A DNA stretch of 61,077 nucleotides, the filler included. It is 12 parts of 12 records of this genome, joined end to end, with 100 filler letters (N's around TTAATTAATTAA, not from the genome) between each part and the next. Parts side by side here need not be neighbours in the genome. Positions count along the whole stretch, not along the records: positions 7,005 to 18,398 come from SRR15195285_9985; 11 more parts are not named here. The stretch is one strand, 5' to 3'. Below, one piece after another: positions 6,905-56,784 of the stretch. A program made the position numbers and the translations under genes. Position 1 is the first letter of the stretch. Every line of letters begins with the position of its first letter. The notes beneath the pieces were generated by a model, which ran no database searches, had not been told where the DNA came from, and was given only the letters and a program-made list of their open reading frames with translations.

Positions 6905-7004
6905 NNNNNNNNNNNNNNNNNNNNNNNNNNNNNNNNNNNNNNNNNNNNTTAATTAATTAANNNNNNNNNNNNNNNNNNNNNNNNNNNNNNNNNNNNNNNN
7001 NNNN
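6905..7004. other. Artificial contig spacer (N44-TTAATTAATTAA-N44); identical copies at 18399, 21651, 25495, 29712, 35364, 39228, 43812, 48380, 53260 and 56685
   Basis: Same 100-nt structure 11 times; the core puts stop codons in all six frames. Confidence 0.99.
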
Positions 7005-7007
7005 GAC

Positions 7008-8672
7008 ATGTCGGAGGACGACGAGCTGCTCGGTGGCGCCGGTGGGGGCAGCCCGCCGCCGGCTGCAGGCACAGGTGGCGCTGGCGGAGGCGGGGAACCG
7101 GAGGATGGCAGTGAGGATTCTGACGAGGAGTTCGACGATGTGCCGATGGGAACGTCGCGCGTGTGTGGAATTGAGTGCACGCACAGCACGCTCGCGTGTC
7201 TGCTCTGTCAGCTGGTGTGCACCATCCCGGCGTTGCTTCTGGTGCCTACCATCGCTGGCGTAGACAGAACGGGTTGGGCGATCACAACTGCAGCGCTGGG
7301 TCTGCTTGTGCTGTGCGGATGCACCGTGCTGTGCTCCTGCCTCTGGTCGGCGCTGTGCGATGATGGCTTCGAGGAGAAAGGCGAGGTCAATCTGCACGAG
7401 CAGCACGAGAGGATCATGGCGATGACGGAGCAGGATCTCGAGGCGCAGGTCTTCGTCGACCCGTACAGACTCGCCGACCAGAGCCGCGGCTCCAGCGATG
7501 GCAGCTCTACTGCACTGTCCACCGCCCTGGCGCGCCCACCGGGAGGAATGGCTCCTGGCGGGGGGGCTGTCACCGACACTTCCTACTACGACCTGCTCGG
7601 TGTCCCTCATGACGCCAGCACTGCAGCAATCAAGAAGGCGTACTACAAGCTAGCAGTGCAAGTGCACCCAGACAAGAATCCAGATGACCCAGAAGCTCAG
7701 TCCAAGTTCCAGGCAATAGGTCAGGCTTACCAGGTGCTATCCAACGAGCAGCTCCGTAAACGATACGACGCGCGCGGTGCTGCGGCAGTCGAGGGCGAAG
7801 AGTTCATGGACTCGTCAATGCTCTTCGTCATGATCTTCGGCAATGAAAGATTCGAGGAATATGTCGGTGAGCTGCCGATGATTGCGGAGATGGACCCTGG
7901 CGCCACGCACACGGCTGCTGGCCAAATGCTGCGGCAGAAGCAGCGCGAGGCTCGGGTTGCTTACAGACTGTCCGAGAAACTGTCTGGCGTGACGGCGGGC
8001 ACCACACCGATGAGTGAGTTTGTCACGGCAGCAAGAGAGGAGGCGGTCGAACTCTCTGCGTCGCCATTCGGTGCGTCACTACTGTACCATATCGGGCGGG
8101 TGTACTGTGCCATGTCAGATCGCCATCTAGGCTACGAGTCTGGGCTCGGTTTTGCTGGTCATCGCGCGGCCTGGAAAGAGCGGCGGCACGCTATGAAGCA
8201 AACGGCGGGTGCGATGGTCGATGTGGCGAAAGTAGCAAGCGCGGTGCACAAAACAGTTGGGGCAGAGGAACCAGATGAGGAACTCGTGCCTGATGCAGAG
8301 CAGATTCCGCAATTCCTCAAGGTTGTGTTTCAGATGACAGTATTGGACGTTGAGAACACGTTACGGCGCTCCTGTGACCTTGTTTTGCGGGATACAGACC
8401 CACAGGACAAAGCCGCGCGACGAAGACGTGGAGAGGCGATGCAGGCTCTCGGGCTGCTGTTCCAGGAAGTGGCTGATGGGACGAATCGCGAAGAGAGGCA
8501 CGCCGAAGCCTTCGATCAGATGGCAGAGCAGATGCAATCGGCGGTTGCTGCGGCACAGTCGGCAGAGGCTGGCGACGCAGATGGACAATCAGAGCTTGGG
8601 GCCCAGGGCGACGAGGCAATTGTACCACCAGGCACACAGGCACCAGCTGGGCAAGGCGACGCCCGGCCGTGA
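7008..8672 (+). CDS. J-domain + DnaJ-X domain protein (Djp1/Caj1/ATJ10-like) with two N-terminal hydrophobic segments
   Basis: TSYYDLLGV...YYKLAVQVHPDKNP...FQAIGQAYQVLS; X-domain FGASLLYHIGRVY and DVENTLRRSCDLVLRD...RRRRGEAM. ATG is 3 nt from the contig edge, so it may be 5'-partial. Confidence 0.88.
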   Translation: MSEDDELLGGAGGGSPPPAAGTGGAGGGGEPEDGSEDSDEEFDDVPMGTSRVCGIECTHSTLACLLCQLVCTIPALLLVPTIAGVDRTGWAITTAALGLLVLCGCTVLCSCLWSALCDDGFEEKGEVNLHEQHERIMAMTEQDLEAQVFVDPYRLADQSRGSSDGSSTALSTALARPPGGMAPGGGAVTDTSYYDLLGVPHDASTAAIKKAYYKLAVQVHPDKNPDDPEAQSKFQAIGQAYQVLSNEQLRKRYDARGAAAVEGEEFMDSSMLFVMIFGNERFEEYVGELPMIAEMDPGATHTAAGQMLRQKQREARVAYRLSEKLSGVTAGTTPMSEFVTAAREEAVELSASPFGASLLYHIGRVYCAMSDRHLGYESGLGFAGHRAAWKERRHAMKQTAGAMVDVAKVASAVHKTVGAEEPDEELVPDAEQIPQFLKVVFQMTVLDVENTLRRSCDLVLRDTDPQDKAARRRRGEAMQALGLLFQEVADGTNREERHAEAFDQMAEQMQSAVAAAQSAEAGDADGQSELGAQGDEAIVPPGTQAPAGQGDARP

Positions 8673-8757
8673 CCTGTTGATGCACAACTGTAAGTCAATG
8701 AAGCAGTTTGATCATTTTGCTACGGCAAGACATTCACTCGCGTGACAGTAGGAAGCA

Positions 8758-11700
8758 CTAGGAAGCCTGCAGCGAGGCCTGCACCGCTTCCGGTGTTTGC
8801 AGGAACCGTATGTGCGGAAGTAATTTGGCGGCTGCTGCTAACTTTCTAGGGGAGTGCCTGTGCACTGCAACGGGCTTGTCGATGAGGTTTCTCGGGTTTG
8901 CGCGAGCTTCCCAGAACCTGCCGTCAGCTAGTGCCGCCTCGAGTCTGCCATGTCCAGAGTCATAATACTCCGAGTCAGGGTCTACTATGTGTATGTTGCC
9001 CGTGGCTGTCGCTGCATGTGGGTTCGATTCGATGAACCAGCGCGCAGGATCGCGGCCGAGCTCACTCATCTCCTCGTCTGAGAGATCGTCGTTTGAAACA
9101 GCGCTGCCGAATTCATCCGTTGCATCGATTATGTCTGGGTCAGCCAGGTTCGGCATTGCTAGCATCTCCGATGGGACCAGCCGCCAAGGTTCACCTTGCT
9201 GTATCGAATCGATGGTGTGGCGATCACCGCGTGTCGCGTGCTGGTGGGTTGCTGCCATCTCTTCAAACTCTGCGCGCTGCAGGTCCTCCTTAGCCATCGC
9301 CGTATATCTACCATCTAGCTTCCATCCCATCTTGTAAAGAAATTTTGTAGACCAGTCGCTCACGTACTTGGCATAAGTGAACCGGCCACGTTCGACGTAC
9401 ATCCGTGCGGCGTCCGCCATCTCTGCGTCAAGCCAGTCAAAAGGGCCGTACTGCACCGCGATTCGAACGAGGTAGTCAAATTTCTTCTCGTCAGTGAGAC
9501 TCGGCCACGGCGGGATCTGATGCTCCGTTTGAAAAGTACGTAGTTCTTCTGAAACCATGGCAATGATCGTGGCGCGCAACGAATCTCGTTCCTGCCAGTG
9601 TGGTAACGCTGGGGGCGTGCGAGAGACTCGCGCTAGCTGCTCCGGCGTCGGTGTACGCGGCGGCGGTAGATCATTGGGCTGGCAGGTCACCTCGAGCTCG
9701 ATTAACCCGTACGGATTAGGGACCGAATACTTTCCCTGTATTCTCAGCACCTCCAGCCAATTCTCCAACAGTGCTGTTGACACCTCTGTGGTCCTACCTT
9801 GCGCGCTCTGTGCGGTGTCAGTCAGCGGCCACCGCTGTGTAAACGTAAAGGCACCCCAGCCTCCGACCTCCCTGAGAAAGGGGCGCAAATCGATGTCGAT
9901 TCCGCCGAGAAGATCGTCGGCGTCCATGTCCTTGTCTTTTACTGCCACTGAGAGCACCCAGTCTTCCTGTCTGTGCATCGAAAACTGGAAGAGCTCCCCA
10001 TACACAGGATCGAGGTTCTTCTTCTGCACGCTGCTCTTGAAAGTCGGATGGTTGCCGCCACAGTTCAGCTCAACGTAAGGGTCCGAGGTGCGAGACGAGT
10101 CTGCCCCGATCAGCTTCACGCACTTAACAACCCGGATAGTAAGGGTCGCGTCACGCTTCACGTTCTCGCAGTTGGCGTCAGGAATCTGTTCCGTTTCAAG
10201 TGACTTTGGTGCGGGCTCTGGCTCAGGTTGTGTCAGGGGCACTAGTTCGCCTCCGTACTCGTCGCCTGAAACGCTGTTAGACTCGTCTGACTGCGAGAAG
10301 TCTGAAAGGTCCGAAAACTCATCATCGTCGATAGCCCGTGTGAAGTACTGCAGAAACTCCTCGTAGGAGACGTCGGCGTCATCGTCATCGTCCATTGACT
10401 GCAACAACCATTTGAGCTCGTTCTGCTCAATGTGCTTCACACCAAACTCAGCCAGGATTGAAGCGAGTTCGTTGGTATCCAAAGTACCGGACTCGTCTGT
10501 GTCTGAACGCTTGAATGCTATCGTAAGCTGCACGCGGTTGACTTGAACGGCCCGACGAATCTTTGCTTCGAGCCTGCGCAACCGTTTCTCTTCAGCCGCC
10601 CTGCGCTCCGCACGTGCCTGTTGGATGTCCGAAAAAGGTTTGACAACGCTCTGGCAAATGGCCTTTCGACGCTTCTGAATGTAGGTACACACCGCGTAGG
10701 TGATGCAAGGGATGCCTACCACACCGAGGAAGGAAAATATAGAACCCCAAATTAGCCACCAGACACATTCTGGGTCTTGGAGGCACGGGTCATACGAGTC
10801 CACCCACCGGTCACAGTTCTTTCCGCCTGTACCTGGGCGGCAAGTGCAGACATAGTCCCCTGGACCGTCGTTGCACACCGGAGGGTCACATACGTTCGGG
10901 TCCTTGCACGGTTCCATATGAATGCACGGATTTGATGCGCATTCATTAAAATTGGATTCGCAGTTACCAGTGAACAAGTGTGTCGGGTCACCGAGAGGCA
11001 CTCCATCTGCTGTGAAGCCCAATGGACCGTGGAAACCAACGCGACAAGTACAGCTATATATATCCACCTGGGTCATCTCGTCAAACATACAGGAGGAGCG
11101 ATCCAAACAAGACGACTGGTCACTGCACCAGGCATTGTTTCGGCACGGGTTCGATCGGCACTCGTCTATATCGGCTTGGCAGCGAACACCTGCCCAGCCT
11201 GCAACACAGTGGCACTTGTACGCATCAACCTCATCCTCACATCTGCCACCGCGATAGCACGGTCTACTTTCACAGTCGTCTACATCTGTTTCGCACTGGT
11301 GCCCGATAAAGCCTGTCGGACAGTCGCACGTGAATGCTGGTACACCGAACTCGTGGCTACATCTACCACCATTGAAACATGGGCTCGACTCGCACTCGTC
11401 ATAATCCTCCTCACAATTGTGACCTTGAAATCCATCAGCACAAGCACAAATGTAAGCATCTACATGATCAACACAATTGTTGAGGATTAGACCAACACAC
11501 GGATCACTTATGCATTCATCAATATCGATCTCGCAGTTCAGTCCCTCATAGCCCTGGGAACAGCTGCAACCATAACTGTCAACTGGTATCTGCGAATTGG
11601 TCGTTGACTCGGAGCATTCTCCGTCATTGTTGCACGGACTGCTGTCGCATTCAACTATATCGACGTCACAGTCAACTCCCGTCCATCCCGGTCGGCACTC

Positions 11701-14700
11701 GCACTGATAGGCCAGCACGGGCACTTCACAATACGGAAAGGCTTCTGAGTCTGGGACGCAGGCCCGACTGTACTGGCAAGTCTGCCAGTCAGCATCAAGC
11801 CGTTTGCCCGTCGCATTGATTTCTGCGTAGCAAGCTCCAGCTTTCAGATACATGCAGGAGTCACGGCTATTAGGCTTGAACTCGGCCTCCGCTGCAGAGC
11901 AGGCAACCCATTCGTCTACGTCATCACATGACTGATCATAAATGGATTTGCACTCCTCCAGAACTGTGCACGCAGCTTCCGCTTCAGCGCGGGATGCATA
12001 CGAACCAAGTACATGTTGGTCCCCGCACCAAAAACCGTAGTACTGTGTCCAACGAGGGGCCACGGCAGCATATGTTGCTCCGTTTGCCTCTGGGTGTGAT
12101 ACGCGGACCAACTCAGCACACTCTGTTGGCCCAGGTGCATCGCCCATGAACACATCGCTGCCGCCAGCTCCATCCCCAGCACTATAGACGCACGACAAGC
12201 ACGACACCATGCCAACAACTGAACAATCAGGATCGCCGCTAGAGTCTGTGCACTCCGCGCCATACCTGCACGGCGCACTTGCACACTCATCAAAGTCAAC
12301 CTCGCATTGATGTGTGACGCCGTACCCAGGCATGCAAGTGCACGTGTACTCGTCGATGGCAGGGCCATCAGAACAGGGTGCATTATTGTCACAGGGATGA
12401 GATCGGCACTCGTCAATGTCTAGTTCACAGTTGTGCCCTTCCCACCCTGGCAAACATATACACCCGTACATGTCTACCATGCCTTCAGTGTAACAAGTAG
12501 CTCCGTTTTTACATGGGTCGGAGTAGCACTCATCGATATCAATGTCACAGGTCCCGTTGATGGAACTTGTGTAACCTGCAGCACAAGTACAGTTGAACGC
12601 GTTGATGGCGCTGACGGGAATCCATTGGCGTTGAGTCGGATTCCATTTTAGATCAAGAGAATCCTGGCAAGAGCCACCATTCATGCATGGGTGACTAGAA
12701 CACTCGTCCTTGTCACATTCACAGTTGTGACACTCCCATCCTGGAACACAGTCGCATGCGTACGCATCCACCAACTTCATAGAATGCCATTCAGTGACGG
12801 TCTCATTAAACGTCGACGACGTGTTGTCTAGATCGAGGTAAGGTATTGGAGTCAGTGTGAGGTTGTACTCTCCACAAGTTGCGCCGTTTTGACATGGGGC
12901 AGATAAACATTCGTTGATGTCAATGTCACAGTGAAAACCTTCCCAACCAGGATCGCAGCGACATGAATAGCTCCCAATACGTTGGAGGCAAGTTCCGTGG
13001 GCACACGGTCGGTCGTCGACGCACTCATTGACGTTCCCAACAAGTACAATCACACTCAACGAGTATGGTTGCGAAATGCCAAAGCCAGCGAAAGTACTTG
13101 ATGGAGTCAATGTGCTCTGAAAATTCAGCAAAGCATCTGGCGGCTGAACTCCAGATGGATGAAGATGGCCTCCGATGATGGTTCCTGAAGGGATCACCTC
13201 CCAAATCACGACTGTAGAACCGGCATGAAGTTCGAGGATTCGAATTCGGCTCGGCGGAACGCCTGCTAGACGCGCTGCATCTTCTGCAAACTCAATTTCA
13301 AATGTGCGGCGTGTCTCGTCGTCCCACGTGGAGATATCGACAGCGAGCGTCAGCTCAACGTGCATAAGCTCGCAGTACATACCTTCCGTCCGGATTTGCC
13401 AAGCATTTCGCCCCGGAAGCATTCCGCTGGGGCATTGCTCGCACTGAGTGCCATCACTGATCTCCCACAAGCCACATTCGAGGCATTCTCCTCTGTCTTC
13501 GCGTGGCATCTGCCCTGGAACGCAGAATTCACACCGCATTCCGAATTCACTCGCTGATTTGTTGCCCAGTGTCGTACAAGAGATGCAGGAGACGCCGCCT
13601 GCCAGCCAGTTGGGTTGGAATCCAGGCTCACAAGGACGACACACTTCGCCGTCTGCAGAATACTTGGAGACACAGGTCTCACACTGCGATCGCTCCTCGT
13701 TAGCACCTCTACCAGGCGTACAGCGCTTGCACTGTGCGCCCATTTCGCTAACGCACCCACCGTCTACACAAGATGCGTTTACACAGTGAGCGTCTCGAGT
13801 CCACGCAGGTTGCTCTTCACTGATAGGTTGCGTTTCGTGCAAATCACCCAAACAGAAAATCTCAGTAATGTCGCTACATAATATGCAATCCAAACGATCG
13901 GCTGTAGGCATGCTGCCCGGCGGACAAACTACATTTGGTTCTGGCTCCGGCTCTGGCTCCGGTAGTGGTTGCGTTGGTTGATACTCAAGAAAGAACCCGG
14001 GCATTTGCGCAACTCCAGCGTAGCTCCCATACACCTTCGTCCACTCTCCTGGATTGTAGCCTTCGGCAAAGTTAAGAGCAATGTAGTCTTTGCCAGGAGT
14101 GTCAAAGAAGAGCTCATACTTGCCCCAGTTCGTAAAATTGAATACCTCTCCGACAGGATCGCCACGATAGGTCACACGCCTTACCCCTTCAAGCGTGTCT
14201 TTTTCCCACCACCAACGGCCTTCTGAGTTGTTGCCGCGTCCACCGGTCCAGCCAGTGGGTGGATTACCATCTGCATCCAGGAGCTGGTTGATGCACTCTT
14301 GCTCAAGCTCATTGACGATCGTAGCTAGGTATGCTATTCCACGAGTCTCTTGGTCAGGATCGTAACTATGTGACCTCGCCGCACCCATACGCTCTGCCTC
14401 AGCTCTAGCTTCGTCCCAAGATGAAGGAAATGGTACGTACTCGTACACGTGCCCGTTGTCGCAATACATGTCGTTCGGTTCTGGCTCGGGTTCTGGTTCT
14501 GGCTCCGGCCTGTATGAGCTGCACACGTTATCGTAGCATGCATCGCCAGCTGTTGTGTTACACAGGCCACAAAACACTTGTCCACCGCAGTCGTCATCAA
14601 TGTGCCCACAGTCGAATTCTTGTAAAGCACACGTGGTCGGAGAGCACGAACATGTGCCTGGACCGCTGTAACCGATCAATGGAATTGTATCTGCCGGATG

Positions 14701-17700
14701 GCACGACTCGGGTTCAGTGAGCCGACGGTAGCACAATCGGGCGGTAGCATCACCATCTTCTTCTCCACCTTCATCGATATGGAGTATTGATTTCGTTGCG
14801 ATCGTGACGACGGTCTGCCCGTCTATATAGATGCAGTTGTTTGTTTCATACTGGTCAGTAGCAGTATTGAAAGTCGTTTCACAATCCTCCGCATTTTGCG
14901 CTGGCTCGCCAGTGAGAGGCAAAGAGAGCATACGTAAAGCACCAGACGCCTCTCGGCCGATTGGGTGAGAACACGCCCTGTATATTGTTGGGCTGAGTTT
15001 TTCATAACAGCTTTCCGCCGGGATGTGCTGAGATGTCACGACAATCTGATTCACGCTGGTCGCATAATATAAGTTCCCGTCGTGATTAGACAGTGAATGA
15101 AGAGCGCATACACCGCCCTGATTGACAAGAATTGTGAATCCAGCGCAATCGGCGTCTGCGGAGCACATTGCACTGCATTCATCGGCGCCGACAACTTCTG
15201 GGCTGGGAATGACCATTCGCACATTTTCGCCTTCGGAGTTAACACACCATCCAGGTAGTGGAGGAGCGTATGATGAGTTCAAACTGACAGACGATTCCCA
15301 GTCGAACGGCGTATACGTGCAGATGGGTGAATCGTGCCACTGCACTCCTGCAAACTCGCAAGCCCGGCGACTGCTCGGCTCGTCTCCAGATATATCAGCT
15401 GCTGCACATTGGTCTACGGTATAATTCCTTTCTTGGAAGCTGCCAGGAGGCTGGCCCCAATCAATCCACGGCGATGTGCCGTTGCTTATCTCCGGGGTGC
15501 AGGTTTCTCCACCGCTGTCGAATGCAGCGATGCGCCGCACAACACACTCACGGGTCTCATCTGGCCACACCCAGGACATATGGCAGGTGTCGTTCTGTAA
15601 GTGGCATGTCTCTGAGCTGATACCATAGTCATTTTCGTCCACTTCGAGATGTGGACAGAGGCCGCAAGTGATGGGACAGAGCGATTGCAGAGTGCCATCT
15701 CCTCCATTGCGCTGCATGAGCTCTGGCACTGCACGAGAGATGTCCGAATCGCACTGGACACCGAAATAGCTTAGCAGTACCTTCAACTCCTCGCATGTGG
15801 AATTCGAAAACAGTGGCTCCAACGGTGCCAAGCTTGGCAGAAGAATGAAAGGAACTTCGGTAGTGTTGCATACTGGCAGTTGCAGATCGCACGGCGACCC
15901 ACGGCCTACACGCGTGATGTCGCATTCGTGTACTACAACACGAAGTGTCAGACGAATCGTGGGATTTGTGACCGTCCCTACACAGTACGTGCCAGCCATC
16001 GACTGGGTTGGAGGCGTTTGTGGTTCGTAGGTCAAGATCGGCGGATCCGGCCAGTGGTACTGCACCGCTTCCAGTCGCGGCAGTGAAGGCAATTCGATTG
16101 ACGGAAAGTACTGCGTGGCCAAGGTGCACTCTACACGTCCTGTGTCCGTGTTGCAAAATTCGCTGGTTCGGCCCGCGCTTCCGAAGTGATGCGCATCTTC
16201 GGAGTCCATCGGAAAGCTTAAGTCCGAGGGACACTCCGCCATGGGGTCCGGAAAGTATGCGGCAACATGCAGGTGGTCAGGTGAGCGCGGGCTCCAACTT
16301 ATGTCCAGTGAATCGCCCACATATATAGTCAGCTCGGATGGCACCAGAGACCGCTCAGATGCCTCTCGTGCAGCGGGCACGACTACATGATGCCGCGCAG
16401 GAAGATGAGGAGCAAGCAGGTGCGCTACTTGCGGCATGCCCTCCTGAAACAGTGTCATTCGACATGCATTTTCGCCATTCTGTCGCGGACCATTCCCGCA
16501 TTTGCCACACTCCAGTGTGCCACCACATCTGTCGCCTAACGTCCCACAGTTGACACCTTCCTGCTCGCACGTCGTTGGCACACATTCGCACTTGTGCTCG
16601 ATCGAACACACCTCCTCATATCCCGTGGTAGCATTTGAAACGCATGTGCCACACTCCAAGTCGATCCCACACCCGTCTGTGATTGTCCCGCAGGTCGCAC
16701 CTTTTGTCACGCACTTCGCTTCCACACGGCCAGCACTTGCACCACATTCTTCACGAACAGGCGCAGTGTCGCACGTGAACGGAGTACAGACGCAAACGTT
16801 GTCTTCACACGCGTTTTGGCCGCCCCATGTGTTCGTGCCGCACACTCCGCAATCCAATTCGCCGCCACACCCGTCCGCGCGAGCTCCGCACGTGGCCCCC
16901 ACCTCTTCGCAGGTGACTGGAATGCACACACAGTAGCTTGCCCGAGGCACGGCTGGTTGATATGCAACCGCTTCGACAGTAGGCGTAGTGGCCGTACCGC
17001 GCACGTACTCCACCGCCTGCACCTCGGGAATGTACTCGTTCGGCACGTGCTGTGATGATTCCAGCGAGCATGCAGCACATGCTCCACCAGTTCCTGCAAA
17101 CCCAGGCGGACAAGGGTCGCACCCAGTCTGATCGGGATTGGGCTGATGGCCATCTCCGCATTGAACGCAGCTTGTCTTGCCTACGTACACAGGAGCCGTA
17201 GCCCCTCCCAATTCCCGCAGTGTTGCATTGATCGTACCGTTGCAGAACGACGCCTCGGCACAGGTGCCGCAGCTGCTGATAACCAGCGGCCGCAGCCACA
17301 TTGGGTCGTCGCGGTAGTCTCCGAAACTCCCGATGTGGGTCTGGTGAGGGTAACCACACCCATCGCTCATCAGCCCACACTCTGCTTGTTCAGTTTCACA
17401 CGTGGACTCTACGCACTCGCAAACCTTCTCGTCGTTGCAGACCTCATTCGCAGCGCATGTCCCACATGTCAGTGCTCCTGGCCCTGGGCAGCCGTCGCTA
17501 ATCCGCCCACAGTTTTTCTGCTCAATCTCGCAAGTTGTAGGAGTGCACGTGCACCGGTAGTCCTCGCTGCACGCCTGCTGAGTCCCGTAACAGGACCCGC
17601 AATCAAGCGTCCCACCACAACCGTCGCTTAGTGCAGCAGTTGCAACGAAATCCGCTCGGAAGTCCGAGGCCTTAGGGGAGCACAACGCTCCAGCTGGGAT

Positions 17701-18315
17701 GCCCCCAGCCAAGACAGTGCCCTTCTCCTCGCATGTGGCTGGCTTGCAGGTGCACTCGCGCTGACCCGGAGCGGCATCCGGGTCGCACCATTCGCCAGGG
17801 GTGCGAACCCCGTAATCCATCGTCGGATTGTCGCACCCATCCCAGCTGAGTGTGGCGTTGCCGCATCGGACCAGCCCGTCGCAGCCGTTGTCCCAGGAGC
17901 CGCAGGTTGCTGTCAGCTCTTCGCACGTCGTCGGGATGCAGGTGCACACATTATCGACGCAGAGCTTGTCCTCCGGGCACGTGCCGCAGTGCAAGATCTC
18001 GCCGCATGGCGCGCCGCTTGTGTCAAACCCGGCGCTGCTGAGGAACTCGCCGCAGTCGTAGCCTTCTCTTTCGCACGTAGATGCATCACACACGCACGCA
18101 TTGTTGACGCAAGCTTGCCCAACGTCGCAGGTGCCGCAGTCAAGCTGCCCCCCGCACCCATCGTCCACAGACCCGCACGCGTACGCACAGGCAATCACAG
18201 AGACGGGCACGCACGGCGGCGGCGGCGGCGGCTGCGCCCGCGCCAGCGTGTTCGGGCGCAGCGCAGCAATTCCCAGGCTGACACTGAACACCAGCCGGAA
18301 TGTATATCTGTCCAT
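8758..18315 (-). CDS. Giant single-pass membrane protein (about 3185 aa, one uninterrupted ORF): Cys-rich repeats, C-type lectin, 12 Ca-binding EGF repeats, TM helix, EF-hand pair, C2 domain
   Basis: Signal-like N-terminus from ATG 18315; CGxxxDGCGGxLxCGxC repeats; NGHVYEYV...SWDEARAEA...YLATI; DIDECxSxPCxNG repeats; TM WWLIWGSIFSFLGVVGIPCITYAV; EF loops DTDESGTLDTNE and DDDDDADVSYEE; C2 SDPYVEL...KKNLDPVYGELF...KDKDMDADDLLG. Confidence 0.88.
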   Translation of the reverse strand: MDRYTFRLVFSVSLGIAALRPNTLARAQPPPPPPCVPVSVIACAYACGSVDDGCGGQLDCGTCDVGQACVNNACVCDASTCEREGYDCGEFLSSAGFDTSGAPCGEILHCGTCPEDKLCVDNVCTCIPTTCEELTATCGSWDNGCDGLVRCGNATLSWDGCDNPTMDYGVRTPGEWCDPDAAPGQRECTCKPATCEEKGTVLAGGIPAGALCSPKASDFRADFVATAALSDGCGGTLDCGSCYGTQQACSEDYRCTCTPTTCEIEQKNCGRISDGCPGPGALTCGTCAANEVCNDEKVCECVESTCETEQAECGLMSDGCGYPHQTHIGSFGDYRDDPMWLRPLVISSCGTCAEASFCNGTINATLRELGGATAPVYVGKTSCVQCGDGHQPNPDQTGCDPCPPGFAGTGGACAACSLESSQHVPNEYIPEVQAVEYVRGTATTPTVEAVAYQPAVPRASYCVCIPVTCEEVGATCGARADGCGGELDCGVCGTNTWGGQNACEDNVCVCTPFTCDTAPVREECGASAGRVEAKCVTKGATCGTITDGCGIDLECGTCVSNATTGYEEVCSIEHKCECVPTTCEQEGVNCGTLGDRCGGTLECGKCGNGPRQNGENACRMTLFQEGMPQVAHLLAPHLPARHHVVVPAAREASERSLVPSELTIYVGDSLDISWSPRSPDHLHVAAYFPDPMAECPSDLSFPMDSEDAHHFGSAGRTSEFCNTDTGRVECTLATQYFPSIELPSLPRLEAVQYHWPDPPILTYEPQTPPTQSMAGTYCVGTVTNPTIRLTLRVVVHECDITRVGRGSPCDLQLPVCNTTEVPFILLPSLAPLEPLFSNSTCEELKVLLSYFGVQCDSDISRAVPELMQRNGGDGTLQSLCPITCGLCPHLEVDENDYGISSETCHLQNDTCHMSWVWPDETRECVVRRIAAFDSGGETCTPEISNGTSPWIDWGQPPGSFQERNYTVDQCAAADISGDEPSSRRACEFAGVQWHDSPICTYTPFDWESSVSLNSSYAPPLPGWCVNSEGENVRMVIPSPEVVGADECSAMCSADADCAGFTILVNQGGVCALHSLSNHDGNLYYATSVNQIVVTSQHIPAESCYEKLSPTIYRACSHPIGREASGALRMLSLPLTGEPAQNAEDCETTFNTATDQYETNNCIYIDGQTVVTIATKSILHIDEGGEEDGDATARLCYRRLTEPESCHPADTIPLIGYSGPGTCSCSPTTCALQEFDCGHIDDDCGGQVFCGLCNTTAGDACYDNVCSSYRPEPEPEPEPEPNDMYCDNGHVYEYVPFPSSWDEARAEAERMGAARSHSYDPDQETRGIAYLATIVNELEQECINQLLDADGNPPTGWTGGRGNNSEGRWWWEKDTLEGVRRVTYRGDPVGEVFNFTNWGKYELFFDTPGKDYIALNFAEGYNPGEWTKVYGSYAGVAQMPGFFLEYQPTQPLPEPEPEPEPNVVCPPGSMPTADRLDCILCSDITEIFCLGDLHETQPISEEQPAWTRDAHCVNASCVDGGCVSEMGAQCKRCTPGRGANEERSQCETCVSKYSADGEVCRPCEPGFQPNWLAGGVSCISCTTLGNKSASEFGMRCEFCVPGQMPREDRGECLECGLWEISDGTQCEQCPSGMLPGRNAWQIRTEGMYCELMHVELTLAVDISTWDDETRRTFEIEFAEDAARLAGVPPSRIRILELHAGSTVVIWEVIPSGTIIGGHLHPSGVQPPDALLNFQSTLTPSSTFAGFGISQPYSLSVIVLVGNVNECVDDRPCAHGTCLQRIGSYSCRCDPGWEGFHCDIDINECLSAPCQNGATCGEYNLTLTPIPYLDLDNTSSTFNETVTEWHSMKLVDAYACDCVPGWECHNCECDKDECSSHPCMNGGSCQDSLDLKWNPTQRQWIPVSAINAFNCTCAAGYTSSINGTCDIDIDECYSDPCKNGATCYTEGMVDMYGCICLPGWEGHNCELDIDECRSHPCDNNAPCSDGPAIDEYTCTCMPGYGVTHQCEVDFDECASAPCRYGAECTDSSGDPDCSVVGMVSCLSCVYSAGDGAGGSDVFMGDAPGPTECAELVRVSHPEANGATYAAVAPRWTQYYGFWCGDQHVLGSYASRAEAEAACTVLEECKSIYDQSCDDVDEWVACSAAEAEFKPNSRDSCMYLKAGACYAEINATGKRLDADWQTCQYSRACVPDSEAFPYCEVPVLAYQCECRPGWTGVDCDVDIVECDSSPCNNDGECSESTTNSQIPVDSYGCSCSQGYEGLNCEIDIDECISDPCVGLILNNCVDHVDAYICACADGFQGHNCEEDYDECESSPCFNGGRCSHEFGVPAFTCDCPTGFIGHQCETDVDDCESRPCYRGGRCEDEVDAYKCHCVAGWAGVRCQADIDECRSNPCRNNAWCSDQSSCLDRSSCMFDEMTQVDIYSCTCRVGFHGPLGFTADGVPLGDPTHLFTGNCESNFNECASNPCIHMEPCKDPNVCDPPVCNDGPGDYVCTCRPGTGGKNCDRWVDSYDPCLQDPECVWWLIWGSIFSFLGVVGIPCITYAVCTYIQKRRKAICQSVVKPFSDIQQARAERRAAEEKRLRRLEAKIRRAVQVNRVQLTIAFKRSDTDESGTLDTNELASILAEFGVKHIEQNELKWLLQSMDDDDDADVSYEEFLQYFTRAIDDDEFSDLSDFSQSDESNSVSGDEYGGELVPLTQPEPEPAPKSLETEQIPDANCENVKRDATLTIRVVKCVKLIGADSSRTSDPYVELNCGGNHPTFKSSVQKKNLDPVYGELFQFSMHRQEDWVLSVAVKDKDMDADDLLGGIDIDLRPFLREVGGWGAFTFTQRWPLTDTAQSAQGRTTEVSTALLENWLEVLRIQGKYSVPNPYGLIELEVTCQPNDLPPPRTPTPEQLARVSRTPPALPHWQERDSLRATIIAMVSEELRTFQTEHQIPPWPSLTDEKKFDYLVRIAVQYGPFDWLDAEMADAARMYVERGRFTYAKYVSDWSTKFLYKMGWKLDGRYTAMAKEDLQRAEFEEMAATHQHATRGDRHTIDSIQQGEPWRLVPSEMLAMPNLADPDIIDATDEFGSAVSNDDLSDEEMSELGRDPARWFIESNPHAATATGNIHIVDPDSEYYDSGHGRLEAALADGRFWEARANPRNLIDKPVAVHRHSPRKLAAAAKLLPHIRFLQTPEAVQASLQAS

Positions 18316-18498
18316 GCCAGACCCCAGCCACTCAGCCAGAGTCACTCACTCAGCGCCCCTGCTGCGTGCCGACCAGCTGCACCAGCTGCACCAGCTGCNN
18401 NNNNNNNNNNNNNNNNNNNNNNNNNNNNNNNNNNNNNNNNNNTTAATTAATTAANNNNNNNNNNNNNNNNNNNNNNNNNNNNNNNNNNNNNNNNNNNN

Positions 18499-27671: not shown

Positions 27672-29201
27672 TTAGTCTTCGTCTTCCTTGCCAAGCGGAT
27701 TGGCGACAATATCTTCGCTTCGTAATTCAAACGGGAAAAGAGACTCTTCGCAGGCCTTCGACAGCTCCTTTGCTGTAACTGGTGCTTGATCCTCGTACTC
27801 AGACATGTCCGGGTAGCTCGGCTCATCGAGGCGACGTTCCATATTACTTTCCCGTTCTCGCGCCCACTCGCGGATCACAAGCTCGCGGAGCCGGTCCTTG
27901 TGCATCACCTGCAGGTAGTCCACGAGGTCGTCAGCAAACGTGTTGATCTGTTCAACGATTTGGTCGAGCTTGCCGTCTGATAGCGCGTCCTCCTCCGTCT
28001 CAGCCTCCATCAAGCCTTTGAGTGGGGACGCCGACTTATACAGTTGGGCCAGAAGCTTGATCATCGCGCCCTTCTGGAAGCCCAGCTCGTCCGGGGAAAG
28101 TGTTTCGGCGACGTCACCCTCTTTCATCAGCCGCTCCAGCTCTCGCTGCTCCACGTACAGAGACCACGCGTGCCAGAACGACCCACCTGAGACCGCGAAA
28201 GGCATGGCGATGAAGAACACTCCGATCTTTGCGGTAAAGGCTGCAGTGACCATACCCAGGAACCCGGATGGGTAGAAGTCGCCGTACCCAGTTCCCGTCA
28301 TCGTGACCAGGCACCACCAGATGGACACCGGCAGATCGTCGAATGGCGGGCGGTCGTGGGCGTTCCAGCCCTCATCCTCGGAACTGAACGGAATAGCTTC
28401 CGAGTACGCACACGCAGGCTCGCCTGAGCCGTCCGATTTGACGACTGCCTCGCACTCCGAGGAGGTGTCCAGCCGCGTGACCGCCTTGCAGAGCTCTGCG
28501 TCCGCCGGGACAGGGGCGCAATCTTCCGCCACGCAGTTGGGCCACTGTGCAGCCTCCGTGCACGTGTTATCCGCGTCCGGGGTCATCTCCAGGAAGTAGC
28601 ACAGCGAGGACAGAACCACGAGCGCCAGCGCCATGTAGAAGATCGGGACGACCAGCGCTGAGAGCGACTTGATCATGGCCCGTTCCAGCTCCACCATGAC
28701 TGTGCCGAACTTGGTGACCTTGATCATCTTCATGTGACGAGCCGCACGCAGGCAGCGCAGCATGCCGCTCGACGTGTTGTACATCGGGCCGAGCGGCACC
28801 TGAAGAAAGTATGGCGCAGTCGTGATGAAGTCCAGCCAGTTCAGCCAGTCGCTCCAGAACACTGTAATGCTCTTGGCGGAGAGCATCCGCACAACGAGAT
28901 CGAACGTGAACGCAGAGGCGAAGACTGTATCCATCATGAACCACAGGTAGTTGTAGCTCAATGAGTCTCTCCCCTGAAAGAGTGTCTCGAACACCATCAC
29001 CCAGGACGACACGAACACGGCCGCATTCTGCAGCATCATGTACACATAGGCGGCCTTGCACGAGCGCGGGTCGCTGAACAGCGTGTACACGTACTCTTTT
29101 CCCTGCATCTCGCTGATGGGGGTCTTCAGCTCGATGGTCGGCAACTTCCGCTTGCGCACCACGCTCGGCCCCGACGTCACGACGCCGCCCGCGCCGGACA
29201 T
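27672..29201 (-). CDS. Voltage-gated potassium channel-like subunit (6 TM), single ORF
   Basis: NWLDFITTAPYF (S3), basic S4 LRCLRAARHMKMIK, pore SIWWCLVTMTGTGYGDFYP, S6 GVFFIAMP. Confidence 0.88.
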   Translation of the reverse strand: MSGAGGVVTSGPSVVRKRKLPTIELKTPISEMQGKEYVYTLFSDPRSCKAAYVYMMLQNAAVFVSSWVMVFETLFQGRDSLSYNYLWFMMDTVFASAFTFDLVVRMLSAKSITVFWSDWLNWLDFITTAPYFLQVPLGPMYNTSSGMLRCLRAARHMKMIKVTKFGTVMVELERAMIKSLSALVVPIFYMALALVVLSSLCYFLEMTPDADNTCTEAAQWPNCVAEDCAPVPADAELCKAVTRLDTSSECEAVVKSDGSGEPACAYSEAIPFSSEDEGWNAHDRPPFDDLPVSIWWCLVTMTGTGYGDFYPSGFLGMVTAAFTAKIGVFFIAMPFAVSGGSFWHAWSLYVEQRELERLMKEGDVAETLSPDELGFQKGAMIKLLAQLYKSASPLKGLMEAETEEDALSDGKLDQIVEQINTFADDLVDYLQVMHKDRLRELVIREWARERESNMERRLDEPSYPDMSEYEDQAPVTAKELSKACEESLFPFELRSEDIVANPLGKEDED

Positions 29202-29819
29202 CCCAAGCCCCTCCTAACACAGAGCAAGAGAGCGCGGCCCACAAGCGCAACCGCGCCGCGCCCCGGCAGAACGGGCCAAAAACACCTCCAACTGCCACGC
29301 TCCTGCACAAACAACCCACCCCACCCCGCCACCCCCCGACGCGCCCGCCGCGGCTTCCGCAGCTTCCACCGCTCTTGCACTCGCCGTGAGCGCGTCCGTA
29401 ACGGCTGCGTAACGGCTTTGCCCCGGGGCCCGCCCGCCCGCTGACCAACCAACCCCCCTACGCCCACTGTGTCCTGCCCTGTGAAAGACACAATCCATAT
29501 CTGGGTATTCGCCATTCCCGCCAAATACACGGTGCATAATCCACCATATGATTGATATATTATTGCATATTACGTGGTGATGGCGAAAAGAGCGGGTGGG
29601 TCCCCGAGGACGCGGCGTGTTGACCACCAGCAAATGACCGCTCTCGCCTGTCTCTCGCCTGTTGACGTGGCGGAAATTTTTCCCACAGTCATTTAGACAT
29701 GAAATTATATANNNNNNNNNNNNNNNNNNNNNNNNNNNNNNNNNNNNNNNNNNNNTTAATTAATTAANNNNNNNNNNNNNNNNNNNNNNNNNNNNNNNNN
29801 NNNNNNNNNNNGACCGCCG

Positions 29820-32547: not shown

Positions 32548-35152
32548 CTACTTGTCACGTCGGCGAATACGTGCCACGGCATAGACGTCTCCTGTTGTCC
32601 CCTCTCGAATGACGCAAGTCTCCAAGAGCTTGCCCAGTCTGGACTGTGTCTCAACCCCAGCTTTGTGTGTCAGCGATGCGCCTTCGCACACTCCTTCGCT
32701 GGCTGCCATGGTGTCCGTAGAGACTTGGCCAAGGCTGCCCAATCGTTCAAACCAGCGCTCGGTCGCAGGATCCCACACGTCAACTAACCCAGATGTACCA
32801 TCAGGTTGGTCACTCACCATCTTCAGCTCTTTCAGCATATTTTCTTGCATCGGCAAGATGGACAAAGGCTGAGACTGTACAACTGTCTCGTTCTTGATGA
32901 GCCCAAAGAACTTTGGGTCTATGCTGCAGTGCACGAAGAAGTCAGAGAAGCGAATTGTTCCTTCCTTGCGGGTGTCAATGGCATCGAACTTATCCTGAAG
33001 GTTGTCCTTGCCAAGTAAAATTGCGACCATCTCGCGCGAAAAGGCAGTATAGATTGCTAACTCGACATCGCGGAAATTCAACACTCCTTTGCGATTGACG
33101 TCCCATCTCTGAAATGCTGCAACTCGACGCCACAGTTTCTGCAGTGCTGTTGACGCTGCCGTTGTAGTCGTAAGCTTGTCGCCTTGCCTATCCTCTAAGG
33201 ATGATGGTGGTAGCACTGGTTGTTGCATGGCAAGCTTTGTCGCCAGCTCGTCAACATGCTCTTGGGTCATTCGGTAGCAGTCGTTAAGGTGGTTGAGCTC
33301 ACTCCGCTGCATGTAAGTCCTCACTGCCGGGAATGCCACTAGTGGCTCTAGCTCTGCAGGCCAGGATTGCACCCACGAGGCCGCCGCCTTGGCCTCGCGT
33401 TTGAGTGGTTCCAGTGCTGAGGATGTACGCCTTGGAGTATGGCCAGTCCCAGAAAGTCGTACGATACCTTGTGGTGGGGAGGGCTTACTATAGGTTGGCA
33501 GCCGTGAAAGCTTCTTTGCCCTGTCTGCCTCCGCCTGCGCAGCGGCTTCCTTCGCGGCTAGTGCTGCTAGTCTGTCCTCCTCTCGCTTGGCCACAGCTGC
33601 TGCGGCCTCCGCCGCCTGGCGCGCTGCTTCTTTTTTGGCGGCTATTTTGGCATCTCGAGCTTCTGCAGCCGCCGCACTCTCTTTTTCAATGTCCTCTGTT
33701 ACTCTACGCACGGCAGCAGCGGCCACTGCTATCGCATCATCCGTCGCCTGCGTGTGGGCTTGTAGTGCAATAGACTCTTTTTCATCTGCAGGGCGCTTGC
33801 TGCTTTGCACTCCAGCGTCCGCCACTGCTTCTTCGTTCCTGTCGTTGTTGACGGCATCTGGCCAAATCGTTTCTTTGCTGCCATCGGTGTGTGTGATTTG
33901 CTGCTGGCCATCTGGAAACTCCACCACCTTCTTCCCATCAGGATAAGATGTCTGCCGCTGCCCGTTGGGCAGGACTGTCTCGTGCGAACTGTCCGGCCAC
34001 GTAGTCTGACGTTGTCCGTCGGGGAACGCAACCCTTTTCTTACCATTTGGATATAGCGTTTGACGTGTTCCATTCGGGAGAATCGTCTCCTCCGTTCCGT
34101 CAACAAATACGATTTGGATCTGACCGTCTGCAAACACGGTGACTGAAGTACCGTCTGGCAAGGCTGCACGGTCGTGCTGGTTCGGAGTAATGCTGACCTC
34201 AGTACCGTCGGGCCATGTCACAAGCCGCATGCCCGATGGCGTCAGTGTTTCTGTTTTGCCTCCTTTCCACGATGTCTGCCGCTGACCATCATCAAACTCC
34301 GTCACTTTCTTTCCGTCCGGAAACGTCGTCTGTGTCTGCCCACTCGGCAGGACAACTTCTTCAGTTCCGTCTGGAAAATTTGTTTGGCGCCCCCCTCCCC
34401 CGCCGAATTCGATGATCTCTGTACCATCGGGTTTCACGGTCCGCTTTTGTCCACTAGGGAACTCCGTGATCTGAAGAAATGCACAGGTCGCCTTTAGCAA
34501 GCCACGTGCTGGCGTGCACACAATCGACAGGATAGGGTGGCACACCGATGTGTTGGCGTGATGGTAGATATGGGCACACGTAGCGCGCACCTCAGTCCCA
34601 TCGGGTTCAGAAAGCTGCCTCTGTCCGCTGCTCAAAATTGTCTCCTCCTTTCCCGACGGCCACTTGGTCTGTCGCTGGCCATCAGCCCATTCCGTACATC
34701 GCTTGCCATCTGGCCACACCATAGCTGCACAAGCAGGAAAGCGACACGCAGGCAAGCGCTTATCAGCCGTTGCGGTGTGGGTACGCAGGCATGGGAGGCG
34801 CTGACAACGAACAAGGCCGCGCGAGCGCACTCTTTTGGCCATCCGGATTGGTAGTTTCCTCCCGCCCATCTGGCCACACGATGACTCGGATCCCGCTCGG
34901 GTTTACAGTCTGTGTCTTCCCCGAAGGCCACGTCGATTTACGCTGTCCCGAGGCCATTGCAGTCTCAGTCCTGCCGTCTGGCCAGACCATGCGAATCTGC
35001 CCGTTTGGGAAACTGGTCTCCTCACGACCATCCAGCCATGTCGTTTGCGATACCCCATCTGGGAACTTGACTACGCGCCGCCCGTCCTCGTAGACAGTGC
35101 TCACCTGGCCATCACTGGTCGATGTCTGGTTAAGCACGTTGTTGGGGTCCAT
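32548..35152 (-). CDS. Protein with extended PDG/PSG/PNG beta-repeats (TCP10/CENPJ G-box-like), coiled coil and EF-hand pair; multi-exon, possibly 5'-partial
   Basis: About 9-aa repeats (VVKFPDG, QTTWLDG, ETSFPNG, ETILPNG) continue across ORFs 34763-35164 and 32548-34869 with intron-like interruptions; EF-like DVNRKGVLNFRD and DTRKEGTIRFSD. Confidence 0.7.
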
Positions 35153-43686: not shown

Positions 43687-44034
43687 GAACACAAACGGAC
43701 AACTTAGACGCTGGTCAGTTGTCACAAAGCGCTCCCGTTTGTTACGCCACGAAGCTAATAATCGTCAGCCCGCCACATTTCGGGTTGCACCCACAGAGTT
43801 TTGTCGATATANNNNNNNNNNNNNNNNNNNNNNNNNNNNNNNNNNNNNNNNNNNNTTAATTAATTAANNNNNNNNNNNNNNNNNNNNNNNNNNNNNNNNN
43901 NNNNNNNNNNNAGAGAGACAGCCAGACAGGCAGGCAGGCAGACAGACAGACAGATGGATCAGAGCGAGTGCGCTGTGGCTATCTGTGCGCGCGCGTGGCT
44001 TGACGGGCGCCTGCGGCGCTGCGTGCGCGGGCAG

Positions 44035-45811
44035 GGTGGAGCCGGCGTCCGTGGGCAGCGGGACTTTCGAGGCGGTGGAGATGTTTGAAGGGCGCCAGCC
44101 CGGCGAGCTGAATAAGTACAGCTCCGTCATCACGCAGCAGAAGAAGCAGGGAGCTGGGCAGTCACAGCTCTACGGCACAGGCATGAGCGACACGCAGATG
44201 AACCAGCCGCAGATCGGGATCATGTCCAACTGGTTCGAGGGCAACCCGTGCAACATGCACCTGAATGAGCTGCAGGACATGATCTCGGAGGGCGTGACCA
44301 ACGCCGGTCTCAAGTCGATGCGGTTCGCTGCCATCGGCGTCAGCGACGGCATTAGCAACGGCACCGACGGCATGGCGTACTCCCTGCAGTCGCGCGACCT
44401 GATTGCCGACAGCTACGAGACGGTGATGGGCGCCCAGTTCTACGACGGTGGCATCACGATCCCTGGCTGCGACAAGAACATGCCCGGCGTGATTATGGGC
44501 ATGGCGCGTGTGAACCGCCCCGCGATCATGGTGTACGGTGGCACCATCGCGGCCGGCAAGACCGATCAGCACGACAAACTCGACATCATCTCAGCGTTCC
44601 AGGCATACGGCGAATTTGTGGCCGGGGCTATCGGCGAGGAGGAACGCGCCGACATCGTGCGCAATTCCTGCCCGGGCCCGGGTGCGTGCGGTGGCATGTA
44701 CACGGCGAACACGATGTCGAGCGCTATCGAGACCCTGGGCATGTCACTGCCGTACTCCTCCTCGTCCCCAGCTTTCGCTCCCGAAAAGGCAGCGGAGTGT
44801 GCCGCCGTGGGATCAGCACTGCTGAATCTCATGGAGCTCGATATCAAGCCGCGCGACATTATGACTTTAGAAGCATTCGAGAACGCGATCACGATGGTCA
44901 TGGCCACTGGTGGTTCGACCAACGCCACCATTCACCTGATCGCGATGGCACGCTCAGCCGGCGTGCACGTCACCCTCGAGGATTTCCAGCGCCTGTCTGA
45001 TGCCACGCCTTTCATTTGCGACCTGAAGCCGTCTGGGAAATACGTTATGGAGGATTTACACGCGGTCGGCGGCACGCCAGCGGTAATGAAGCTCCTTCTC
45101 GAAAACGGCTACCTGCACGGGGATTGCCTCACTGTCACCGGCAAAACGGTCGCAGAAAATCTCGAAGATCTGCCCGGCCTGGCCGACGGGCAGCAAATTG
45201 TCGTCGGGTTTGAGAAACCAATCAAACCAGAGGGACACATCCAGGTCCTGAAGGGCTCGCTGGCACCAGAGGGTTCAGTTGCGAAGATTACAGGCAAGGA
45301 AGGACTTTACTTCTGTGGCCCGGCGATGACGTTCGACGCAGAGGAGGATGTCATGGTGGCTGTGGCGGACGGCTCACTCGTGGAACGCGTCAATGCTGCC
45401 AAGGAGGCAGGCCACTCTGGCGCTGTGCTCTGCATCCGCTATGAGGGCCCGAAGGGTGGACCTGGCATGAAGGAGATGCTGAACCCAACCTCTGCGGTGA
45501 TGGGCGCTGGGCTCGGCCAGGACGTGGCAATGCTTACGGACGGTCGGTTTTCTGGCGGTTCCCACGGCTTCATCATCGGACACATTGCACCAGAGGCACA
45601 GGTCGGCGGTCCAATCGCCTTTGTGGAAGACGGCGATATCATTGAGATCGACGCGAGCAAACAGACTCTTGAGCTCGACGTTGATGACGCGACGATGGAG
45701 ACAAGAAAGGCAGGCTGGTCAGCACCTCCGCTGAAATACACTCGGGGCACGATGTACAAGTACATCAAGTGCGTGTCCTCTGCCGCAGCAGGCTGTGTCA
45801 CTGATGAGTAA
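44035..45811 (+). CDS. ILV3: Dihydroxy-acid dehydratase, 5'-partial (last exon)
   Basis: [72 protein letters not shown]. Preceded by an intron-like stretch ending in CAG. Confidence 0.96.
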
Positions 45812-56481: not shown

Positions 56482-56784
56482 CGCCGTCGCTCAACGAAGC
56501 GGTGGCGCCTCTCTATCGACGCATCGATCGCACGCAGCGATGGAGCCTGCACGCGGGCGCCGGGCGGAGGGGGGTCGCGACGGGTCGCGCGCACCGCCCA
56601 GGCCACACTGACACTCGAGGACAGAAAAAATTCTCTGTCGCGGGATCAATGATGCGCACCAGGGGGTCAGACTGTGGGCCACTGNNNNNNNNNNNNNNNN
56701 NNNNNNNNNNNNNNNNNNNNNNNNNNNNTTAATTAATTAANNNNNNNNNNNNNNNNNNNNNNNNNNNNNNNNNNNNNNNNNNNN

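Follow-up and report, generated by a model that had tools for sequence, protein, structure and literature searches.

Surface proteins that join a lectin-like domain to epidermal growth factor (EGF) repeats and one transmembrane (TM) helix are exemplified by E-, P- and L-selectin. The selectins, like the proteins of group 14 of the C-type-lectin-like domains (CTLD), carry their CTLD far from the membrane, together with 1-6 EGF repeats, and their short tails contain neither EF-hand nor C2 domain. Synaptotagmins, extended synaptotagmins (E-Syts) and ferlins are membrane-anchored proteins whose cytosolic C2 domains bind Ca2+ and acidic lipids; the C2 domains are tandem or multiple, SMP or ferlin parts also occur, and an extracellular or luminal domain is small or absent. 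The group 14 layout (thrombomodulin, CD93, CLEC14A and CD248) is that of a type I protein with a C-type-lectin-like domain, EGF repeats and one TM helix (PMC6852297). The present work concerns a large gene within a stretch of DNA of 61,077 nucleotides, filler included (hereafter the window, meaning the whole stretch that was analysed), whose predicted product carries a long array of EGF repeats outside a single TM helix and an EF-hand pair with a C2 domain behind it. As judged from its sequence, this protein is a lineage-restricted shuffle of well-known modules, real and conserved, in a combination found in no other family searched.

Gene model and transcription

The coding sequence extends over 8758..18315 on the minus strand (the strand of all features of the protein given below) and consists of 3,185 codons followed by a stop (8758-8760). 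It is uninterrupted and free of internal stops, in accordance with the original prediction, an earlier reading of the same DNA, which had noted an open reading frame (ORF) of 9.5 kb. The stop-to-stop ORF covers 8758..18345 on the same strand (9.6 kb), with a stop codon directly upstream of the frame. The protein starts with MDRYTFRLVFSVSLGIAALRPNTLARAQ, from an ATG at 18315, which was taken as the true start because the relatives begin alike; a public copy (P0154) has an identical protein, but its start was placed on a GTG at 18345, ten codons upstream.

The same sequence was present, at least in part, in 19 of the 23 public runs listed, from 15 studies; six of these runs were RNA libraries, and all sources were marine or seawater except one labelled rhizosphere. 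Contigs of one DNA run (X1) and of three metatranscriptome runs from three studies (X14, X15 and X17) were aligned to the contig that holds the gene. Their pieces were colinear with it; most of those listed showed 0-3 differences, two showed 13 and 18, and X14 covered 29 of 30 bins. No GT..AG joint, insertion or deletion was found across the gene in the contigs of these four runs. The RNA contigs are consistent with an unspliced transcript, and the gene is real, has no introns and is probably transcribed.

Two skipping joints in RNA run X17 (11535/11536 to 12907/12893) were considered as introns and rejected: their ends are non-canonical, each occurs in one contig with a side of 24 letters, and they join EGF repeats. 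They are read as probable repeat mis-joins or as sequence of another organism. In X15 and X17, RNA contigs start 42 and 21 bases beyond the stop codon (at 8716 and 8737, respectively), at best a faint indication that there is a short 3' untranslated region. Two low-complexity stretches, the DNA of a (PE)n linker (14477-14509) and that of a poly-Pro segment after the signal peptide (18204-18246), attract contigs of many other organisms. The depth of X1 reaches 102 and 178 there, compared with about 5-13 elsewhere, with many loose ends; these peaks are low-complexity repeats and not copy-number signals.

Membrane topology

A 19-residue Kyte-Doolittle scan gave only one segment above 1.5 (residues 2517-2547, peak 1.92), in agreement with the single TM helix predicted earlier. 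The helix itself (VWWLIWGSIFSFLGVVGIPCITYAVCTYI, residues 2518-2546, 10678..10764) is followed by KRRK and is kept in relatives. Up to residue 2500, each 100 residues contain 4-16 Cys, and only four Cys occur from residue 2601 to the end, three of them within 2701-2800; similarly, 21 N-x-S/T sequons precede the helix and none follows it. The N-terminus (residues 1-28, 18232..18315) reads as signal-peptide-like, with a basic start, a hydrophobic stretch LVFSVSLGIAAL and then ARA-Q, a pattern also seen in relatives. Since there is one helix, followed by KRRK, and since Cys and sequons are distributed in this way, a type I orientation is predicted, which would place about 2,490 residues on the outside and 638 on the inside. 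These features indicate a single-pass type I surface glycoprotein of 3,185 aa.

Cytosolic tail

Both modules that had been predicted behind the helix exceeded their Pfam cut-offs. The EF-hand pair (residues 2596-2659, 10339..10530) matched EF-hand_7 (PF13499) with 33-36 bits for a cut-off of 30. In its two loops, DTDESGTLDTNE and DDDDDADVSYEE, positions 1, 3, 5 and 12 are occupied by acidic or oxygen-bearing residues; the second has Ala at position 6, which is usually Gly. The nearest structure in the Protein Data Bank (PDB) was a flagellar radial spoke protein (E 4.8e-12), with calmodulin and centrin at about 1e-10. The C2 domain was matched by Pfam at residues 2724-2812 (PF00168, 64-67 bits, cut-off 22), and its fold extends to about residue 2880 (9676..10146). 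Its best PDB sequence match was synaptotagmin-7 (E 5.5e-14), followed by synaptotagmin-3, synaptotagmin-1, otoferlin and E-Syt2, down to 5.7e-10. In the synaptotagmin-7 alignment, Asp stands at both loop-1 and at three loop-3 positions (AD, SDP, D-K-D, DADD), the five acidic positions that we take, from synaptotagmin-1, to be the calcium ligands.

In a structural model of the tail, the EF-hand helices reached a pLDDT of about 70-79, and strands over tail residues 176-333 formed a beta sandwich for the C2 domain (pLDDT 50-66). A Foldseek search with this model gave 65 matches at E<=1e-3, the best of which were C2 domains (Munc13 C2B, E-Syt and ferlins) with a probability of 1.00. Behind the C2 domain, a helical unit whose family is unassigned (residues 2927-3017, 9265..9537) was modelled with a pLDDT of 70-83 and is kept in P0018 as well as in P0003 and L001, two of the sequences introduced below. 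It had no Foldseek match, the matches listed being C2 domains only, and residues 2881-3185 had no match among PDB sequences. The remainder of the tail was modelled as disordered. It includes an acidic end (8788..9198, pLDDT <50) with the short motifs EPW.LVP, WF.E.NPHAATATG and PVAV..HSPRK.AAAA.LLPH.RFLQ.PE; the end motifs, in the last 150 residues, are kept at 50% overall identity.

Neither kinase nor ankyrin families were among the Pfam matches listed for the protein, as the original prediction had stated. In four segments compared with NCBIfam, the only match, to a bacterial calcium-binding effector family, was rejected as a generic EF-hand match (38.7 bits for a cut-off of 120). An Atlas language-model search with the whole tail gave a best score of 0.84, below the meaningful level.

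Ectodomain

The ectodomain has twelve calcium-binding-type EGF (cbEGF) repeats next to the membrane (residues 1761-2501, 10813..13035), the number given by the original prediction. Pfam EGF was matched in two segments far above its cut-off (E 4e-16 and 8e-23); all twelve units start with the calcium-binding-type pattern [DN]-x-[DNKV]-[EQD]-C and all contain C.C..G..G..C, while the EGF_CA profile (PF07645) gave 22.6-25.5 bits, below its cut-off of 27. A Cys-rich insert of about 160 aa (residues 2035-2195, 11731-12213) interrupts the sixth repeat; three lineages have it and P0019 does not. The best PDB match of the insert was a glucosidase II beta-like protein, at chance level (E 0.048).

At the other end, residues 35-616 (16468..18213) are taken up by nine copies of an unnamed Cys-rich repeat (C.C.P.TC...CG..DGCGG.L.CG.C), with a CxxC insert at about 380-420, and a tenth (residues 1221-1266, 14518..14655) is followed by a (PE)5 linker. 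The strict pattern CG..DGCGG..CGxC gives seven copies, and ten are counted by eye in sequence and alignment, so that the earlier figure of about ten holds. This repeat of about 45-65 residues matched no Pfam or NCBIfam model and may represent an undescribed extracellular repeat family.

Two modules that the original prediction had placed between these arrays were not upheld. The first is a cupredoxin-like stretch, included in a region conserved in four lineages whose fold is unassigned (residues 655-900, 15616..16353): Pfam gave no match to it at E<=1 or E<=10, and residues 640-839 had no match among PDB sequences at E<=10. An AF2 model of residues 640-1460, with five informative relatives in the alignment, had a mean pLDDT of 29.5 with no residue at 70, and a homologue search with residues 600-1760 among shorter proteins retained none of 8,000 scored candidates at E<=0.001. 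The second is an apple-like unit: residues 1040-1082 (15070..15198) match PAN_1 (PF00024) at E 0.0035 with 17.6 bits, below the cut-off of 21.4, over profile positions 20-62 of 76. This PAN/apple-like stretch lies inside an insertion (about 955-1215) that was seen, among the aligned relatives, only in the window protein and in P0002.

Between two (PE)n linkers lies a unit (residues 1283-1456, 13948..14469) in which a C-type lectin had been recognised, a claim that is weakly supported. In its favour, the best PDB sequence match was CLEC4D, weak at E 0.084, and in the Atlas language-model search 28 of the 30 best clusters belonged to the Lectin_C-bearing set (score 0.95, 180-190 shared features). 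Against it, Pfam gave no Lectin_C (PF00059) match at E<=1 or E<=10 in the window protein, P0019 or P0163. The motifs EPN or QPD and WND, which we take to mark the sugar/Ca2+ site of C-type lectins, were not seen in the unit by reading of the alignment: NWGKYELFF of the window protein aligns where P0019 has NWDAFEPN, with EPN, and WND is in neither. The unit is probably a divergent C-type-lectin-like domain.

The CxxC repeats that follow (residues 1472-1650, 13366..13902) are a real region, as claimed, and resemble TNF-receptor/ELAPOR repeats, the TNFR_ELAPOR1_6th match (E 8e-5, 22.9 bits) being below the cut-off of 33.2. They are separated from the EGF array by a conserved, Cys-free region with an unassigned fold (residues 1651-1760, 13036..13365); residues 1641-1760 gave a single PDB match, at chance level (E 0.84).

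Relatives and rarity of the architecture

A word-indexed search of 5.8 billion clusters, covering near lengths only and with the tail as query, returned one protein, P0002 (3,178 aa, 87% identical). An exhaustive HMMER search of the tail against 1.84 billion representatives gave 2,290 hits at E<=1e-3. Among the best 150 of these 2,290, which were inspected, only P0003, P0019, P0011 and four short fragments went beyond generic EF-hand or C2 similarity. None of the 19 other long proteins of the tail search had an EGF domain among the matches listed, all being multi-C2 or multi-EF-hand proteins. The cluster of P0011 also contains P0163, P0166 and P0169, of about 2,570 aa, which have the whole ectodomain layout in common with the window protein; its members that reach the EF-hand all end inside EF loop 2.

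A metagenome scan with a single-protein tail query gave 126 pattern matches, none of which was confirmed, and a scan with P0170 gave one locus, L001, on a marine metagenome contig, which is 51% identical to the window protein over residues 2200-3176. At positions 1985-2053 of L001, a 69-base in-frame GT..AG insert with a TGA interrupts EF loop 2. Its removal restores a 12-residue loop, DDDGDSTTTYEE, after which the EF-hand, the C2 domain, the helical unit and the end motifs continue. The insert is likely an intron that the window gene does not have, and an insert of this type would explain why several public ORF calls end in EF loop 2. P0003 begins with half an EGF repeat; it probably corresponds to a single exon that an ORF finder called from a longer gene.

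P0002/P0156, P0163/P0166/P0169, P0019, P0003 and L001 are true family members (identities of 87%, about 51-61%, 33-40% and 28-33%). The layout recurs in P0002, the P0163 group, P0019 and L001, and the EF-hand pair was found in every relative that extends to it. Within the databases searched, relatives of the same layout were confined to marine sequences and one Picozoa single-cell record, and a literature search, by word matching and not by meaning, found no open-access paper with an EGF array, a TM helix, an EF-hand and a C2 domain in one protein. The original prediction had named a common architecture as a refuting outcome; within the searches made, the combination is not a common one.

Taxonomic affinity and genomic context

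The window consists of 12 contigs of about 3-11 kb each, joined by spacers: 22 runs of 44 N form 11 pairs, each pair around TTAATTAATTAA, at 6905-7004, 18399-18498 and nine further sites. Distances and neighbourhoods across spacers therefore carry no meaning. The contig of the large gene, 7005..18398, holds two convergent genes, the second being that of a DnaJ/DnaJ-X protein of 554 aa (7008..8672, plus strand, by profile match), which lies outside the EGF-protein system; 85 bases separate the two stop codons. The two genes are possibly co-located in close relatives as well: P0304 and P0156 are both assigned to a contig of 15,293 bases, P0298 and P0153 both to one of 4,046 bases, and that each pair shares a contig is deduced from equal size only. 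At L001, the DnaJ-X gene was absent by tblastn, and the pairing is not kept there.

Two genes speak to the origin of the DNA. The only named relative of the tail, P0003, is a Picozoa single-cell record according to its source. The DnaJ-X neighbour has marine relatives at 67-100% identity; its nearest named relatives are found in clusters (44% and 39%) whose members include two other Picozoa records, followed by an alga from a transcriptome collection and by plants, at 34-35%. An Rfam scan of the entire window gave no match, hence no rRNA for taxonomy. A gene for a Tcp10_C (centriole) protein elsewhere in the window (32548-34902, minus strand, Pfam scan) fits a flagellate. Taken together, these data make it quite probable that the organism, an uncultured marine protist, belongs in or near Picozoa.

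Pfam scans of the other contigs also revealed a voltage-gated-type ion channel (27672-29213, minus strand), a full-length dihydroxy-acid dehydratase in one ORF (43913-45811, plus strand) and a fungal-type glucuronyl esterase-like protein (55564-56490, minus strand). The esterase agrees with the polysaccharide-degrading repertoire that a preprint describes for marine heterotrophic protists (bioRxiv 10.64898/2026.04.17.719054). One ORF at a contig edge (18500-20911, minus strand) contains a complete PARG catalytic region, behind which a GDP-dissociation-inhibitor profile is matched in part (positions 65-150 of 436); it may represent either a gene fusion or read-through across two neighbouring genes. 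The original prediction had set the uninterrupted frame of the large gene against a genome with up to 12 introns per gene. Among the genes scanned, this contrast was not borne out: the dihydroxy-acid dehydratase, two DnaJ proteins and PARG are likewise single ORFs in the window, each spanning its Pfam profile end to end, so that an uninterrupted frame is not odd here.

Proposed function and alternatives

Picozoa abound in the sea as heterotrophs and have been brought into culture only transiently. For what such cells touch and take up, large surface proteins provide the most direct genomic clue. In a preprint, the trophic role of Picozoa is called unclear, and EGF-like domains are described as enriched in heterotrophic marine protists and tied to attachment to prey or polysaccharides (bioRxiv 10.64898/2026.04.17.719054).

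The best reading, to which we would give an even chance, is that of a type I surface protein for adhesion or ligand capture, the tail of which would respond to cytosolic calcium. From a mechanistic point of view, a long, disulphide-rich and calcium-stiffened ectodomain would project from the cell and bind an external ligand or surface, in adhesion or particle capture. A rise in cytosolic Ca2+ would then be read by the EF-hand pair and, in the window protein, by the C2 domain. Synaptotagmin-type C2 domains dock on acidic lipids, and the present one might likewise dock on acidic phospholipids of the inner leaflet, while the helical unit and the short motifs would recruit partners. Calcium could in this way gate where the protein is positioned or how it couples to endocytic or exocytic membrane traffic, with no enzymatic output.

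Several observations weigh against this reading. The calcium ligands of the C2 domain are not family-wide: by reading, P0003 keeps about three of the five acidic positions and P0019 almost none, P0019 has no Pfam C2 match at E<=10, and loop 3 of the C2 domain of L001 has an insert of roughly 20 residues. Because these ligands are not kept throughout the family, calcium-dependent lipid docking may be lineage-specific or may not occur. The Ca2+-dependent membrane-binding output of the original prediction is plausible for the window protein, with its canonical EF loops and five C2 Asp; in more distant relatives, the C2 positions are not kept. The model of the tail is poor overall, with a mean pLDDT of 51.8 and 50-66 for the C2 domain. 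The lectin-like unit has no Pfam match and, as read, no sugar-site motifs, so that the ligand class cannot be named; the glycan receptor proposed earlier draws on this weakly supported unit, while EPN/QPD and WND, as noted, were not seen in it. The TM helix and the signal peptide were assigned from hydropathy and reading by eye, not by a dedicated predictor. RNA libraries can contain DNA, and contigs give neither levels nor transcript ends. The taxonomic assignment depends on two genes, with identities of only 28-44%. Finally, the one described picozoan has been reported to feed by fluid-phase bulk flow and not by receptor-mediated capture (PMC3608682).

The protein might instead be a structural surface-coat, matrix-anchoring or cell-cell (e.g. 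mating) adhesion protein, whose tail merely anchors it or regulates its turnover and in which calcium sensing would be incidental. This alternative, unlikely in our view though still worth serious consideration, is in agreement with 2,500 of 3,185 residues being repetitive and disulphide-rich, with 21 N-glycosylation sequons, with domain gains and losses among relatives being confined to the ectodomain, and with the degenerate C2 domain of some relatives. It leaves unexplained a tail of 638 aa whose EF-hand pair is present in every relative that extends to it and whose helical unit and short motifs are kept at 50% overall identity, a conservation that argues for a selected function of the tail.

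Alternatively, the protein could be a vesicle-resident calcium sensor, the Cys-rich part of which would be luminal in a secretory vesicle or extrusome-like organelle, while the tail, in the manner of synaptotagmin, would trigger or steer Ca2+-dependent fusion and thereby expose the adhesive part. The topology, with a luminal N-terminus, one helix and a cytosolic C2 domain, is that of synaptotagmins; the nearest solved C2 relatives (synaptotagmin-7, -3 and -1, otoferlin and E-Syt2) and the presence of all five acidic positions point the same way. However, there is a single C2 domain and no tandem pair, SMP or ferlin parts were not found by Pfam, no synaptotagmin is known to have a luminal part as long as 2,500 residues, and the ligand positions are not kept in relatives, which together make this proposal rather doubtful.

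Bolder, and a good deal more speculative than an adhesion protein with a calcium-responsive tail, is the idea of a receptor-sensor hybrid specific to picozoans and their close kin. The lectin-like unit, the Cys-rich repeats and the EGF stalk would bind particles or colloids, and the protein's own EF-hand and C2 domain would couple binding to Ca2+-triggered uptake or vesicle fusion at the feeding apparatus, as in a calcium-gated cargo receptor that needs neither kinase nor adaptor cascade. We regard this as a long shot.

A Notch-type receptor, in which ligand binding leads to membrane cleavage and the released tail signals, appears very improbable. The protein had been described as Notch-like, and this holds for the type of EGF repeat only. 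Twelve cbEGF repeats beside a single TM helix do resemble Notch and its ligands, and Pfam gave weak EGF_DL_JAG matches, up to 29 bits in one segment. On the other hand, LNR, NOD/HD, RAM and ankyrin were not among the Pfam matches, and the tail consists of EF-hand and C2 modules, no nuclear-localisation or transcription module having been found in it. An assembly or annotation artefact, in which a chimeric contig or at least two genes would be mistaken for a single frame, might be suspected from a window made of short contigs and from a public copy that starts at GTG, as if from a prokaryote-style ORF caller, but is scarcely credible given 3,185 codons without internal stops, colinear DNA and RNA contigs from independent studies, and orthologues from other assemblies that keep the order from signal peptide to C-terminus.

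Whichever its ligand, the gene shows that calcium sensors, EF-hand and C2, can be built into an adhesion-type protein that crosses the membrane once. If the tail of this presumed adhesion or capture protein does dock on membranes with calcium, membrane traffic would be tied to the cell surface in a simple way that needs no kinase. For now, the protein is an uncommon reshuffling of domains, of a kind that is expected in this lineage.

Comparison with known systems

The window protein belongs to none of the three groups of known systems that it recalls, namely the group 14 CTLD proteins and selectins, the EGF-array receptors, and proteins of synaptotagmin type. With the first, it would have in common the make-up of a type I surface glycoprotein with a lectin-like domain, EGF repeats and one TM helix. 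It differs from them in that its lectin-like unit is weakly supported and stands mid-chain, and in that its tail of 638 aa bears calcium-sensor modules.

The EGF-array receptors, Notch, Delta and Crumbs as well as the engulfment receptors CED-1, Draper and MEGF10, resemble it by a long EGF array outside a single TM helix and by a shared cbEGF consensus. By contrast with these, the window protein has neither LNR, HD and ankyrin nor DSL modules, the engulfment motifs NPxY and YxxL were not seen, and the modules of its tail are different.

Like synaptotagmins, E-Syts and ferlins, finally, it would be membrane-anchored with a cytosolic C2 domain, and these proteins provide the best sequence and fold matches for that domain; the tail may be likened to a synaptotagmin relative with just one C2 domain. 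Two proteins retrieved by the tail search, P0004 and P0013, carry SMP and seven C2 domains. The window protein, in which Pfam found no SMP_LBD or ferlin families, instead presents a single C2 domain after an EF-hand pair, behind an ectodomain of 2,500 residues.

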